Shown here: piece after piece, positions 1-4,727 of the stretch
Position numbering within the stretch: position 1 is the stretch's first letter
Layout: every line of letters begins with the position of its first letter
NCBI RefSeq assembly: GCF_011045215.1
Contig: NZ_CP049203.1
Source of the DNA: Escherichia coli
GTDB taxonomy: Bacteria > Pseudomonadota > Gammaproteobacteria > Enterobacterales > Enterobacteriaceae
DNA length: 4,727 nt
Direction: 5' to 3' (one strand)
Made by a program: the position numbers and the translations under genes
The notes under the pieces: model-generated
Databases searched by the model: none
What the model saw: the letters and a program-made list of their open reading frames with translations, nothing else
Told to the model about the DNA's origin: nothing

Positions 1-2
1 TA

Positions 3-39
3 GATGTATTTCATCCATAAATATAAGATGAAATACATC
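3..39 (-). terminator. Stem-loop just downstream of the lysozyme-like gene (13-bp stem, 11-nt loop); candidate terminator or attenuator
   Basis: gatgtatttcatc (3-15) is the exact reverse complement of gatgaaatacatc (27-39). It lies about 20 nt past the stop codon on the minus strand. The 3' flank runs off the window, so a U-tract cannot be confirmed. Confidence 0.3.
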
Positions 40-58
40 ACATATCTACAATTATATA

Positions 59-808
59 TTAACGCTTATCTCGCAACTGCGCAGCTGTATCTTTATTTCT
101 CTGATCACCTCTTTGATGTAAATTTCGATGGCTCTCTTGTGCAGCCGTCTCCCAGTCACCACGATTAACTGCAGCATTGAAATTAGGAAAATCTTTAGAT
201 AACTTAGGGATACCTAAATTAAACCCCATGTCAACCAACGCTGTTTTCCTTGAATTAGAAAAACCATCATAACCAGAATACAAAGAACGCAATCCCTTCT
301 CTGTCACTTGAACATCACTAATACATAAACCGATAACAGCATTATTTGATAAATGTAAGTTCATAGGAACTTGTCTAGAATCTTTTTTAAAATTATTAAA
401 CGCCTCTGTAATTTCCTCTTTAGATGCGGAAACCTCTTTTTCCATATCATCACCATGAGCATGCCATGTATGTGTTCTTGAAAATGGAAGGGATGCAGCC
501 ATATCAGGCGTAGATAGTAAATGACCGATTCCAACAGTAATATTTCCCTCACTGTCTTTGTACATTGTGTTTTTAAAACCTTCATGAGATTTCAAATTAT
601 TAACACACATAGTCATATAAAAACCATCATAACTCCTAGTGGAGGAAATATTTATGTGTGTCTTATCAGAAATGCCCTCATGACTATTCCCTCCAGAGTG
701 TCCACCATAGCTACTATGATTATCACCATCATAACTATGAATCGTGCCATAAGGGGTATCATGATCGTGCCATCCCGGACCTTGATTAGAACTTTCAATA
801 CCGCTCAT
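59..808 (-). CDS. T4-type lysozyme (GH24 muramidase) domain protein with Gly/Ser/His-rich N-terminal extension, 249 aa; candidate SOS-inducible cell-wall-degrading bacteriocin
   Basis: Long ORF in AT-rich DNA. Start set at ATG 808-806 (Met31 of the 279-aa track ORF) because AGAGGA lies 8 nt upstream and the earlier Met codons are upstream of the LexA box; stop TAA at 61-59. Residues ~85-249 align by eye with T4 lysozyme: SHEGFKNTMYKDSEGNITVGIGHLL vs T4L [25 protein letters not shown], with Glu, Asp and Thr at T4L-equivalent spacing (E11/D20/T26); C-terminal RKTALVDMGFNLG and DWETAAQ match T4L RRAAINMVFQMG and WDEAAV. Confidence 0.85.
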   Translation of the reverse strand: MSGIESSNQGPGWHDHDTPYGTIHSYDGDNHSSYGGHSGGNSHEGISDKTHINISSTRSYDGFYMTMCVNNLKSHEGFKNTMYKDSEGNITVGIGHLLSTPDMAASLPFSRTHTWHAHGDDMEKEVSASKEEITEAFNNFKKDSRQVPMNLHLSNNAVIGLCISDVQVTEKGLRSLYSGYDGFSNSRKTALVDMGFNLGIPKLSKDFPNFNAAVNRGDWETAAQESHRNLHQRGDQRNKDTAAQLRDKR

Positions 809-844
809 ATTAATTTCCTCTTTGACTAACAAATAACAACACCA

Positions 845-898
845 CACAAAACTGTGTTTATATACAGTATACTTACGCCTCTCCATATTCCCTGTCAA
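845..898 (-). promoter_or_regulatory. Promoter region of the lysozyme-like gene: consensus -35 TTGACA (893-898); -10 ambiguous
   Basis: Minus strand reads TTGACA-gggaatatggagaggcg-TAAGTA-TACTGTATATAAACACAG. TAAGTA (870-875) gives a 17-bp spacer but is a poor -10; TATACT (866-871) is a better hexamer but gives a 21-bp spacer. The -10 cannot be fixed from sequence alone. Confidence 0.5.
850..869 (-). promoter_or_regulatory. LexA (SOS) box
   Basis: Minus strand TACTGTATATAAACACAGTT: CTGT-N8-ACAG with AT-rich spacer, 17 of 20 matches to consensus TACTGTATATATATACAGTA, placed between the -35 and the start codon as in colicin promoters. Only one box is seen; many colicins have two. Confidence 0.65.
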
Positions 899-1036
899 GA
901 ATATGGATTTTCATTTTTGTGATATAAATCAAAAAAAATCAATCGTGAGTAGTTCCAAGAGAAACATACGCGAACACTTCATCTAATCGAAAACGAGTGA
1001 AAGATATTTCCAAGAAAAATAAATAATAAGGGCTGC

Positions 1037-1072
1037 GTTTGGGAAACGTACAATAATTTCCGTTTCCCAAAC
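1037..1072 (-). terminator. Stem-loop (12-bp stem, 12-nt loop) between cer and the bacteriocin promoter; candidate terminator or insulator for leftward transcription
   Basis: gtttgggaaacg (1037-1048) pairs with cgtttcccaaac (1061-1072). On the minus strand it is followed by GCAGCCC then a T-rich run (TTATTATTTATTTTT). The T-run is not immediately adjacent, so this is only a candidate. Confidence 0.3.
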
Positions 1073-1115
1073 CGCCCCCAATAAGGCCGCCACACTACAG
1101 CTTTTGCATTAACAC

Positions 1116-1340
1116 ATTTACCATAATCCCTTAATTGTACGCACCGCTGAAACGCTCTCAGACGCTTTCTGACGCAAAAACCGTAAAAAGAGATGTTTTC
1201 CCCCGGGTAAACCGAAAAAATGCGTCAGGAACGTTTTCAGCGCGTTGCATGACTATGCATGAAACTGAATGGCGATCGGTTTGGGCGCGTCCGGTGTCTC
1301 AAAGGCTTATTTTCGGATGTTTTCGTCCTCCGGCGTCGTT
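1116..1340 (-). other. cer: cer-like Xer site-specific recombination (multimer resolution) site: XerC/XerD core 1116-1145 plus ~190 bp accessory region
   Basis: Minus strand 1145-1116 reads GGTGCGTACAA-TTAAGGGA-TTATGGTAAAT, identical to the ColE1 cer XerC arm, 8-bp central region and XerD arm as I recall them. The accessory sequences would extend rightward on the + strand; the far boundary is approximate. Confidence 0.75.
1245..1262. promoter_or_regulatory. Candidate ArgR box within the cer accessory region
   Basis: ttGCATgactATGCAtga resembles the ARG box TnTGAATwwwwATTCAnw (two half-sites, 4-bp spacer) and lies about 100 bp from the XerC arm, where cer carries its ArgR site. The match is imperfect. 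Confidence 0.3.
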
Positions 1341-1367
1341 TTTCCGGCTCCTCCTGGTGGCCAGAAG

Positions 1368-3086: not shown

Positions 3087-3796
3087 CAGGGGCTGGCGAA
3101 AGCGGTCGCGGCTCGTCCGTGAGCGTTTTCGCCAGCAGACAAGCCCGGAGAGCGCGTCAGGACATGGGCTGAGAGAAACACCGGCGCGTAAGTGCTCAAA
3201 TCAGACTGGCGGAGACATTCCGCTTCCTCGCCCACTCGCTCACTACGTTCGGTCGCTGGGGCTGCGGCGAGCGGTGACGGCTCTCTCATAACGGCGGACA
3301 GTTTATCCACAGAATCGGGGGATAAGCCGGACAGAACATGTGAGCAAAAAGCACGAACAAAAAGGCCGCGGCGGGGCCGTTTTTCCATAGGCTCCGCCTC
3401 CCCCTGGCGAGCTTCACACTTTTCGAAGCTGCAAGCCTAGGATTTGACGAAACCCGATGTGGCTTCAAGATCATCACCGTTTCCGGTGAATCGCTCCCCC
3501 CTGCGACCTCCACATTCCCGCCATATCGTTTGCCGGATACCTTACCGCCTTTCCCCTTGCGGGACCGTGGCGCTTTCTCATAGCTCACGTGCATCTCTGC
3601 GGTATCTCGGGCGACTTAGGCAGTTCGCTCCAGGTCTGGCTGTATGCAGGACCCCCCCTTTCAGCCTGACTGCTGCGCCTGTTCCGGTAACTGTTCTCTT
3701 GAGGCCAACCCGGAAAGACACGCCTTAACGCCACTGGCAGCAGCCACTGGTAACTGGATTTGCAGAGCGAGATGTATACAGATGGTTACAGAGTTC

Positions 3797-3825
3797 TTGA
3801 GTAACAGCCCTCTTATGGCTACACT
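3797..3825 (+). promoter_or_regulatory. RNA I promoter (-35 TTGAGT, 17-bp spacer, -10 TACACT)
   Basis: Positionally equivalent to the pBR322 RNA I promoter (TTGAAG-N17-TACACT), with the transcript start about 7 nt downstream. Confidence 0.6.
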
Positions 3826-3831
3826 AGAGGG

Positions 3832-3940
3832 ACAGTTTTTAGGTAATCTGCGCTCTGCGATAGCCAGTTACCATTGGAACAATGAGAAGGTGAGATGTCT
3901 CATCGCTCCCGGAAAAAACCGCCTTACGGCGGTTTTTTCC
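3832..3940 (+). ncRNA. RNA I (antisense replication inhibitor)
   Basis: Begins ACAGTTTTTAGGTAATCTGCGCTCTGC (pMB1 RNA I begins ACAGTATTTGGTATCTGCGCTCTGC) and ends in the hairpin plus U-tract aaaaaaccgcc-ttac-ggcggtttttt (3913-3936). About 108 nt, antisense to the 5' end of RNA II. Confidence 0.8.
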
Positions 3941-3953
3941 GTTTACAAGCCGA

Positions 3954-3982
3954 AGATTACGCGCAGCGGCAAAGGATCTCAA
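3954..3982 (-). promoter_or_regulatory. RNA II promoter (-35 TTGAGA, 17-bp spacer, -10 TAATCT)
   Basis: Minus strand reads TTGAGA-tcctttgccgctgcgcg-TAATCT-tcggctt-G. The hexamers are identical to the pBR322 RNA II promoter. Confidence 0.7.
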
Positions 3983-4203
3983 GAGGATCTTTTGCGATCC
4001 GCCTGAAACTCATCACCGTAATTCCGTCTGTGGAATAAACGCAACCTTTTGCACATTATCGGTTAAATCATAACGAATTTGCATATACAACTGCGGTTCA
4101 AAGCCAGTAAACTGGGGGGCGAAGCCCAACCGTTACCAGCTTTGGTGACGTAATTTCCTGAAGTTCCAGCGTAGAACACCAGTTACCAAAAAACGAACAC
4201 AAC

Positions 4204-4683
4204 CTATTTATCACCATTCGCAGCTACCCGGTCACTACCCCCATTAAGAACAAAAATTAGATCTATTGATAATAATCCTTCTGACTTTATTCTTTCAGGA
4301 TAAAAAAAAGATGAGTCACCATCCACCACTTCTTGTAGTTTCTTGTGTAATTTTTGACAGTCAGGTAATGAATTTTCTGCAAAATCATTAAAAATAACAA
4401 CATCTGGAGGAAGCAGATCTTTTACGTTTGTATTCCCTGTAGTAATTGAGATTTTACAAACTCCTCGCCCATTAAAATCCACCAACTTCTTTTGAAGCCT
4501 ATCTCTATATATACCCAATTCACGCTGAATAACGTCCGTGTATGAAGAGTCAACGATAGAATTATCGTACTTTATATCATTAAGATATTCATATATTTCT
4601 TTTACTGAATTTGTCTCTCGCTCCCAATTAGGAGCAACAAATATGCTTACGGAAGCATAAATACTTCCCGAAAACAATATCAT
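4204..4683 (-). CDS. Hypothetical exported or membrane-anchored protein (159 aa); candidate immunity/partner protein of the lysozyme-like bacteriocin
   Basis: A 160-codon ORF in AT-rich DNA, where stop codons are frequent. The N-terminus MILFSGSIYASVSIFVAPNW is a hydrophobic signal- or anchor-like segment; the remainder is hydrophilic. No homology recognised. The functional call is inference. Confidence 0.65.
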   Translation of the reverse strand: MILFSGSIYASVSIFVAPNWERETNSVKEIYEYLNDIKYDNSIVDSSYTDVIQRELGIYRDRLQKKLVDFNGRGVCKISITTGNTNVKDLLPPDVVIFNDFAENSLPDCQKLHKKLQEVVDGDSSFFYPERIKSEGLLSIDLIFVLNGGSDRVAANGDK

Positions 4684-4709
4684 TGCACAAAAAAAAATCT
4701 TTTCAACAT
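4680..4709 (-). CDS. Possible 9-codon leader ORF (MLKRFFFVQ) translationally coupled to the 159-aa gene through an ATGA overlap
   Basis: ATG at 4709-4707 is preceded by GGGGGAGA, though the spacing is short (a TTG one codon downstream has better spacing). Its TGA stop (4682-4680) overlaps the ATG of the main ORF (4683-4681), which has no Shine-Dalgarno of its own. It contains a T9 run. Confidence 0.25.
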   Translation of the reverse strand: MLKRFFFVQ

Positions 4710-4727
4710 ATCTCCCCCAATAATATT

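Follow-up and report, generated by a model that had tools for sequence, protein, structure and literature searches.

The window analysed here is a stretch of 4,727 nucleotides (nt) of Escherichia coli DNA (contig NZ_CP049203.1). Two minus-strand genes lie at its opposite ends, one encoding a lysozyme-like toxin of 249 amino acids (aa) and the other a candidate immunity partner of 159 aa, and a ColE1-type replication backbone occupies the middle. The first-pass annotation had supposed that the genes at both ends would form one module when joined, and the 249-aa open reading frame (ORF, 808-59) and the 159-aa ORF (4683-4204) are indeed 102 nt apart once the ends are connected; the toxin-partner pair with exactly this spacing was found in 10 other contigs. 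We consider it likely that the window is a complete ColE1-type circle carrying an SOS-inducible two-gene operon for a lysozyme-type bacteriocin with an exported immunity protein.

The toxin gene, its promoter and its partner

The features of the cargo, in the order in which they follow each other on the minus strand, are:

851-937, minus strand: colicin-type promoter region, with the -35 element TTGACA at 898-893 and a single LexA box, CTGTATATAAACACAG, at 867-852
821-812, minus strand: Shine-Dalgarno sequence of the toxin gene, AAAGAGGAAA, just ahead of the ATG at 808
59-808, minus strand: toxin gene, 249 aa, 27 kDa, an ORF from the ATG at 808 behind a good Shine-Dalgarno sequence
3-39, minus strand: hairpin with a 13-bp stem (GATGTATTTCATC / GATGAAATACATC) between the toxin stop and the partner gene
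4680-4709, minus strand: upstream frame of nine sense codons and a stop (MLKRFFFVQ), with a strong Shine-Dalgarno sequence, GGGGGAG
4204-4683, minus strand: immunity-position gene, with 159 aa in the annotation and 168 aa when the upstream frame is included
3994-4203, no strand assigned: 210-bp stretch at the lysis-gene position of relatives, with no recognisable lysis gene

The toxin matched the Pfam family PF00959 (Phage_lysozyme) with an E-value (E) of 4.3e-8. Its N-terminal ~65 residues are rich in Gly, Ser and His and disordered, and residues ~66-249 form a T4-lysozyme-like (GH24) domain. In the AlphaFold2 model (predicted local distance difference test, pLDDT, 79) the C-terminal domain is confident and residues 1-60 are of low confidence; Foldseek against the PDB returned T4 lysozyme with a probability of 1.0 and a target-normalised template modelling score of ~0.67. 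Residues E76, D85 and T91 align with Glu11, Asp20 and Thr26 of T4 lysozyme, and none of the three varies among 24 homologues (from Escherichia, Klebsiella, Enterobacter, Citrobacter, Kosakonia, Lonsdalea and Serratia). By profile, modelled fold and catalytic residues, the predicted protein belongs to the GH24 / T4-lysozyme family. No signal peptide is visible in its sequence.

The toxin N-terminus carries the motifs QGPGW, TPYG and HSYDG/RSYDG, which are conserved in most homologues, and in the family alignment QGPGW shares its columns with the DGTGWSSE of two paralogues. The TolB box is DGTGW in colicin A and DGSGW in colicin E9 (PMC2821528), and the TolA-binding motifs of colicin A are PYGR and SYNT (PMC3365938). 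No TonB box was seen in the toxin N-terminus. Tol is most likely the import route, but since it is suggested by short motifs it is a lead only. In other relatives the same lysozyme domain is preceded by unrelated N-termini; modular swapping of N-termini is typical of colicin-like toxins.

Over its 87 bp, the promoter region (851-937) shares 79% identity with the sequence preceding the colicin E1 gene of ColE1. It contains a perfect LexA box at 852-867; a search of the window with the LexA pattern found 2 sites, each scored on both strands, where 0.40 were expected. The homologous promoter region of p1303_5, a plasmid of E. coli 1303 (NZ_CP009169.1, 4671 bp), has a double LexA box. In p1303_5 and in 3.9-kb Klebsiella plasmids a colicin lysis gene follows the toxin-partner pair; because of this gene, the modular N-termini and the SOS promoter, a colicin-like bacteriocin is the best reading, and the cargo is probably a colicin-like, lysozyme-type bacteriocin.

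The stem of the hairpin between the two genes is identical in p1303_5, though the modules are only 74.5% identical overall. The RNA fold of the joined intergenic region has a predicted energy of -31 kcal/mol (z=-5.0). As the hairpin has no trailing T run, it is not a canonical terminator. The record begins and ends 2 nt beyond this hairpin.

The partner belongs to a small family (14 representatives among 1.84 billion proteins) and had no match in Pfam, NCBIfam, PADLOC or PHROG. A Sec signal peptide ending in A-x-A was present in all 10 full-length partner homologues aligned, and two Cys residues are invariant; the partner is thus expected to be a periplasmic, disulfide-bonded protein. Its AlphaFold2 model is of the alpha/beta type (pLDDT 82.7) and resembles TolA domain III. 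In a search with the partner, a 1954-aa repeat adhesin (P0120) was also matched, which we took as a compositional artefact.

Partner homologues lie directly downstream of a homologous toxin, on the same strand, in p1303_5, in the Klebsiella 3.9-kb plasmids and at loci L023, L024, L025 and L029. Of the last four loci, the upstream toxin matched PF00959 in one, gave weak or faint matches in two and had no Pfam entry in the fourth, where it was recognised as a lysozyme toxin from its sequence. Orphan homologues with no toxin nearby were found in three chromosomal contigs (L026, 3001-3531; L027, 3001-3507; L030, 3001-3504), and at L028 the gene upstream of the partner homologue encodes an unrelated lipoprotein. 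A 134-aa lipoprotein with a Pfam TolA domain is encoded 2 kb from the orphan of L030 (509-913), probably by coincidence. Compared with p1303_5, the toxin of the window shows 87.6% identity and the partner only 56%. Synteny, divergence, signal peptide and orphan copies fit an immunity protein.

An annotated lysis gene occupies the position of 3994-4203 in p1303_5 (43 aa), in the Klebsiella 3.9-kb plasmid and in ColE1. In the window this stretch holds no ORF with a lipobox, and a distant DNA search returned only weak matches of ~50 bp elsewhere. A degenerate lysis gene at 4063-4190, where SGNYVTKAGNGWASPPS had been likened to QANYIRDVQGGTVAPSS, was rejected: it has an in-frame stop and no lipobox Cys, and gave no Pfam/NCBIfam match at E<=10.

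The lysozyme gene could also be a phage-derived endolysin or autolysin for lysing its own host, or a remnant of one, followed by an unrelated gene for a periplasmic protein. Its best matches are phage lysozymes (PHROG endolysin at E=3e-12, besides the Pfam and PDB matches given above), but there is neither a holin nor a signal peptide through which the enzyme could reach the cell wall of its producer. The lack of a receptor-binding domain and of a lysis gene in the window also speaks for this explanation; nevertheless, the promoter is of the colicin E1 SOS type and the relatives do carry a colicin lysis gene. The disordered N-termini, conserved, modularly swapped and bearing TolB-box motifs, also argue against an endolysin, and the tightly linked, fast-evolving partner with its signal peptide and its orphan copies fits a toxin/immunity pair. 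We regard the endolysin explanation as improbable and prefer a bacteriocin with its immunity protein.

Partner specificity and the split signal peptide

Partners of the window's family (type 1) pair with at least three different toxin N-termini. Conversely, the window-type N-terminus also occurs in toxins of Klebsiella oxytoca and Enterobacter, which have an unrelated type-2 partner instead. Type-2 partners are ~200-216 aa long, have a signal peptide and are encoded on the strand opposite to the toxin; their genes adjoin homologous lysozyme toxins in E. albertii, Enterobacter, K. oxytoca and Rahnella. The candidate type-2 immunity genes are:

L016, 1458-2084
L018, 1653-2252
L019, 3290-3928
L020, 3297-3935
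L021, 3294-3944

Near the end of the lysozyme domain, the toxins carry the signature ESHR[NDSE]L[HNK]QRGD in 6/6 type-1 pairs and the signature ESHRT[GK][IL] (ESHRTGIGD type), two residues shorter, in 5/5 type-2 pairs. Partner type therefore tracks the C-terminal signature of the lysozyme and not the N-terminus, which suggests that the lysozyme domain is most likely the binding target of the partner, in parallel with Pim and pesticin (PMC3390615). The resemblance of the partner model to TolA domain III would also suit a periplasmic decoy, a mimic that captures the Tol-binding N-terminus of the toxin, or the conserved xY(N/D)G motif ahead of its lysozyme domain, and blocks import; the mismatch between partner and N-terminus across loci makes such a decoy decidedly unlikely, and binding to the lysozyme domain is the role that we favour.

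The partner gene begins with a split signal peptide. The upstream frame reads ATG TTG AAA AGA TTTTTTTTT GTG CAA TGA, with a run of nine T (T9) at 4689-4697, and its TGA overlaps the ATG of the 159-aa ORF at 4683 (ATGA) in the -1 frame. One added T, or a -1 shift, gives MLKRFFFCAMILFSGSIYA followed directly by SVS, a full Sec signal peptide that aligns with all homologues. T9 was found in 13/13 other copies (10 loci; NCBI, ENA and metagenome contigs), and a homopolymer sequencing error was rejected as the cause of the split on these grounds. Natural in-frame alleles with ten T (T10), encoding an intact 168-aa precursor, are known from ~10 contigs with at least two different sequence backgrounds, against several hundred contigs indexed for T9 forms.

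Runs of 9T/9A have the length at which RNA polymerases slip in many bacteria, and slippage can restore disrupted ORFs (PMC1088944). In the window, as in slippage genes, a run of at least nine T lies at the frame junction and one added nucleotide restores a conserved ORF. Three candidate routes to the partner are possible from the sequence: slippage adding one U, a -1 ribosomal shift, and re-initiation at ATGA. The arrangement resembles Shigella mxiE and other 9T/9A slippage genes, in which overlapping frames are joined by one untemplated nucleotide at a T run (PMC1088944). It differs from mxiE-type genes in that the T run lies inside a signal peptide, nine codons in, and in that T10 alleles coexist, slippage being putative here. 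T9 could also be a tolerated or phase-variable frameshift rather than a regulatory device.

The circle, its backbone and the borders of the cargo

The window was first annotated as probably a complete ~4.7-kb ColE1-type plasmid, and several lines of evidence agree with this. No terminal overlap of at least 8 bp was found between the window ends, but the join is seamless against independent contigs: the 828-bp sequence across it (last 428 and first 400 bases) gave gap-free alignments of 99.88% at 13 places, spread over 9 contigs (L003-L008 and L010-L012), the contigs compared having been found via a near-identical protein. The exact 159-aa protein (QIF16539.1) is on record on one contig only, whose 4727 bp equal the window size. 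In the metagenome scaffold L007, the window (1-4727) is covered by a single alignment (97.6%), preceded by 3221-4727 and followed by 1-2673. L007 and L008 hold monomer-sized tandem repeats with periods of 4755 and 4525 bp, L008 repeating a 4525-bp relative; such head-to-tail repeats are expected when an assembler runs round a small circle. In p1303_5, deposited as circular, the parts follow in the same order and one alignment crosses the join of the window; complete circular relatives of 4543-4672 bp are deposited. At a coverage of at least 80%, the plasmid itself is absent from PLSDB and from the RefSeq complete E. coli genomes. The evidence supports a complete circular ColE1-type plasmid whose cargo slot is cut by the arbitrary start of the record.

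It is very improbable that the window is no independent replicon but a single unit within a cointegrate or multimer, or part of a larger plasmid that was circularised wrongly: related copies in longer contigs (L003, 39.8 kb; L004-L006, 12-16 kb) do have other small-plasmid segments as neighbours, and some of these contigs contain duplicated or chimeric genes such as the 281-aa fusion P0022, but the 4727-bp contig with the exact protein, the seamless junction, the single copy of each backbone function, the monomer-sized repeats of L007/L008 and the circular relatives all argue for a replicon of its own. In L003-L006 and L011 (8-40 kb) the cargo and an origin segment are joined to other small-plasmid modules (Replicase/HTH, Hcp-like, ProQ), which could mean that several ColE1-like plasmids of one strain had formed cointegrates or were merged in assembly. 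P0022 (L004, 1338-2183) is a chimeric ORF of immunity residues 1-137 and toxin residues 99-249, on a rearranged contig that also carries intact copies, and points to recombination or an assembly artefact among co-resident copies.

The features of the backbone are:

3835-3942, plus strand: RNAI, antisense copy-number control RNA (Rfam RF00106 full-length, 44.7 bits, E=4.3e-6)
3385-3944, minus strand: RNAII primer region and origin, ends inferred
~3376-3399: RNA-DNA (primer-to-DNA) switch motif, GGCCGTTTTTCCATAGGCTCCGCC, read in the sequence
2892-3086, plus strand: rop (Rom), RNAI-RNAII pairing modulator, 64 aa
1942-2244, minus strand: variable backbone cassette with an 81-aa ORF (2226-1981), a homology gap against the closest backbone relative
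1116-1330, minus strand: cer multimer-resolution site, with the XerC/XerD core at 1145-1116 and accessory sequences to ~1330

The backbone (1116-3993) matches thousands of ColE1-like plasmids, and each function expected by the first-pass annotation is present once (cer core, RNAI, rop and a ColE1-like origin). The RNAI score of 44.7 bits is borderline, just under the RF00106 gathering score of 47, and an Rfam scan of the window at the gathering threshold returned no match. Weak Rfam matches to traJ-II (1791-1855) and MIR2084 (1363-1493), with E>0.01, were taken as chance. The loop of the second RNAI stem has 8 nt, against 3 in the Rfam model. RNAI loops set incompatibility, and the larger loop may therefore mark a distinct incompatibility type. 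The RNAII start and the switch, whose TTTTTCCATAGGCTCCGCC motif lies at 3381-3399, are placed where we presume them to be from RNAI and from knowledge of ColE1/pBR322. Positions 3218-3993 are 76% identical to the ColE1 origin region (776 bp) and 92.9% identical to other ColE1-like plasmids. The rop product has the exact sequence of the NCBI 'Rop family plasmid primer RNA-binding protein', and PF01815 is listed for the same gene in related contigs. The 30-bp cer core is identical to that of ColE1 and has a single exact match in the window; the accessory region aligns with the cer sites of ColE1 and p1303_5. ColE1-type replication depends on RNase H and DNA polymerase I and uses no plasmid Rep protein, and no Rep-family ORF was found among the window ORFs. 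These features place the window among the ColE1-type replicons as judged by sequence, and p1303_5 and ColE1 share the MOB-suite cluster rep_cluster_2350. Neither mob genes nor bom homology to ColE1 were found in the window; relatives are typed as non-mobilisable, and the window plasmid is probably non-mobilisable.

The backbone is a mosaic, as read from its alignments. The closest backbone relative (CP057986.1) has a ProQ/FinO gene in place of the cassette 1942-2244. The annotation of this best plasmid match had suggested a ProQ/FinO gene in the window too, but tblastn found none, the segment having been replaced. The 81-aa protein of the cassette recurs on many small E. coli and E. marmotae plasmids; it had no match in Pfam, NCBIfam, PHROG or PADLOC, and PADLOC listed no defence system for the toxin, the partner or this ORF. 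Several near-identical carriers of the cargo lack 1962-2434 and match 1093-1961 at only 92-97% identity, against 99.5% for the segment 2435-4727 plus 1-1065. Two further features were seen in the backbone. Positions 1350-1600 hold dense nested palindromes of GCACCGTAACGGTGC-like units (families D1, D4-D6, I2, I4 and I5), with a single-stranded DNA fold of -58.7 kcal/mol (z=-6.4) and 91-97% conservation in related plasmids; from its sequence the cluster could be a single-strand initiation or protein-binding element. Two direct units of ~100 bp (2275-2374 and 2397-2498), ~75% identical and ~124 bp apart, each end in CATCGGTGGCGGTGCTACAAAACATATCCTGTCCCG or a close variant.

Base composition separates cargo and backbone. 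AT-rich ends had been described up to ~1030 and from ~4204, and the optimal two-segment division of the circle by GC content falls at 1066 and 4240. In 300-bp sliding windows the GC fraction was 0.33-0.38 across 1-1100 and 4200-4727, against 0.45-0.62 across 1200-4000. With borders defined by homology, the GC content is 36.2% in the cargo (4001-4727 plus 1-1115, 1842 bp) and 53.9% in the backbone (2885 bp), a difference with a chi-square p=2.7e-32.

The window resembles ColE1 and p1303_5 as far as the final base of the cer core (1116, at the outer edge of the XerD arm); beyond this base, ColE1 and p1303_5 share CCACTTACTGT, where the window reads GTGTTAATGC. On the other side, the window stays homologous to ColE1 up to 3993, a point that in ColE1 lies 9 bp beyond the lysis-gene stop codon. 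The slot that the cargo thus fills is the canonical one for the colicin operon in ColE1, with cer on one side and the RNAII promoter on the other; no flanking direct repeats, transposon ends or insertion scars were seen at the cargo borders. The horizontal acquisition proposed in the first-pass annotation holds insofar as the cargo appears to be a module exchanged among ColE1-like plasmids; insertion into a finished replicon does not agree with the canonical slot and the lack of scars and flanking repeats. Because the border between cargo and backbone (1115/1116) coincides with the edge of the cer core, recombination at or next to cer possibly helped this exchange.

ColE1 (NC_001371) shares with the window the RNAII/RNAI origin, Rop, the cer core, the position of the bacteriocin operon and the SOS promoter. 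Unlike ColE1, the window has no mob/bom, exc1/exc2 or lysis gene, its toxin is a lysozyme and not a pore former, its partner is encoded on the toxin strand, and its RNAI has the larger second loop and scores below the Rfam gathering value. The plasmid p1303_5 (~20 near-identical PLSDB copies) has the same architecture, gene order and hairpin, with homologous cer, rop and origin. It differs in the divergent partner with an unsplit signal peptide, in the double LexA box, in the intact lysis gene, and in a hypothetical gene plus exc2 where ColE1 has exc1/exc2. No gene of p1303_5 is annotated as a bacteriocin.

Relation to known toxins, proposed mechanism and significance

Besides colicin M, only pesticin and colicin Z have been reported as colicin-like toxins that attack the cell wall (PMC3390615, PMC6668396). 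Pesticin and Pim, of the Yersinia pestis plasmid pPCP1, share with the window pair a T4-lysozyme-fold killing domain acting on periplasmic peptidoglycan, a periplasmic immunity protein and a ColE1-type plasmid (PMC3390615), features that in the window are predicted from sequence and model. The similarity of the toxin to pesticin is marginal (a 95-residue C-terminal stretch with E=3e-4; hhalign probability of 25% over 44 columns). Pesticin has 357 aa, with a 167-residue receptor/translocation part dependent on TonB/FyuA, against the ~65-residue Tol-like N-terminus of the window toxin. Pim is unrelated to the partner, homology being rejected at an hhalign probability of 0.2%, and pst and pim are convergent, unlike the co-directional genes of the window. 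By analogy the toxin would work like pesticin, yet the pair is not a pesticin/Pim homologue.

Colicin Z (pColZ) is also alike in several respects: it is a 26-kDa, SOS-inducible toxin of a ~4-kb plasmid, with a single SOS box, an AT-rich operon and no lysis gene, and is reported to degrade peptidoglycan (PMC6668396). Unlike the window toxin, it has no lysozyme domain, is taken up through CjrBC and is carried by a different plasmid backbone (PMC6668396). Identity with colicin Z was rejected, as the cza-like toxin is accompanied by a four-transmembrane immunity protein encoded on the opposite strand, so that orientation, immunity type and domains all differ (PMC6668396). In a hydropathy scan of the relatives, the type-1 homologue of the Klebsiella 3.9-kb plasmid had no hydrophobic segment beyond its signal peptide. 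Nothing relevant on a lysozyme-type colicin of this kind, or on p1303_5, was found in the literature searched, which left most subscription journals outside its coverage; a prior description is possible.

From sequence, homology, fold and synteny we infer the following model of killing, immunity, import and slippage. RNAII would prime replication, RNAI and Rop would set copy number, and cer with the host XerCD would resolve multimers. DNA damage would remove LexA from the single SOS box, and the two-gene minus-strand operon would then be transcribed. The 27-kDa toxin, having no signal peptide, would be harmless in the producer cytoplasm until released. Its short disordered N-terminus would carry it across the target outer membrane, most likely via Tol, and its T4-lysozyme-like domain would cut the target peptidoglycan in the periplasm in a pesticin-like manner. 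The partner would be exported to the periplasm and would protect plasmid carriers, most likely by binding the lysozyme domain. T9 would part the first nine signal-peptide codons from the rest, and full-length export would need one extra U or a -1 ribosomal shift; without either, re-initiation at ATGA would give a partner with a shortened signal peptide. Release would follow routes other than an own lysis gene and must rely on lysis proteins of co-resident plasmids, on prophage induction by the same SOS signal, or on leakage.

Several points weigh against this interpretation. The databases name the toxin only 'glycoside hydrolase family protein' or 'hypothetical'. The ~65 residues before the lysozyme fold leave no room for a separate central receptor-binding domain, an unusual architecture for a colicin. 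The promoter has only a weak -10 element at the homologous position, and a promoter scan did not list the toxin promoter. The likeness to Tol boxes concerns motifs of 3-5 residues, and the Asp of the TolB box is missing. The window lacks a lysis gene that would release the toxin. The T9 lineage is nearly clonal (99.5-99.9%), so that the conservation of T9 says little on selection. Most translation of T9 may give a signal peptide nine residues shorter and without its Lys/Arg n-region, and immunity may consequently be impaired in the T9 lineage.

A more far-reaching version of the model would make the cargo an undescribed minimal class of 'muramidase colicin', with a ~65-residue Tol-hijacking tail on a T4-type lysozyme and no receptor-binding domain, a new TolA-domain-III-like periplasmic immunity family, and immunity export set by slippage or by T9/T10 phase variation. 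We offer it tentatively, as possible but rather unlikely.

By itself the plasmid is ordinary; what is added here is the identity of its cargo, which probably encodes a bacteriocin of the lysozyme type. A new candidate immunity family, the absence of a lysis gene and the signal peptide split by a T9 run go with it. The lysozyme-type toxin family, with candidate immunity families of its own, is widespread on small plasmids of Escherichia, Klebsiella, Enterobacter, Raoultella and Rahnella. In the split signal peptide, slippage-dependent expression of an immunity gene, or its on/off switching, could be tested in a compact system. If active, the toxin would be the smallest natural vehicle known to carry a folded lysozyme across the Gram-negative outer membrane, and would then be of interest for engineering lysins against Gram-negative bacteria.

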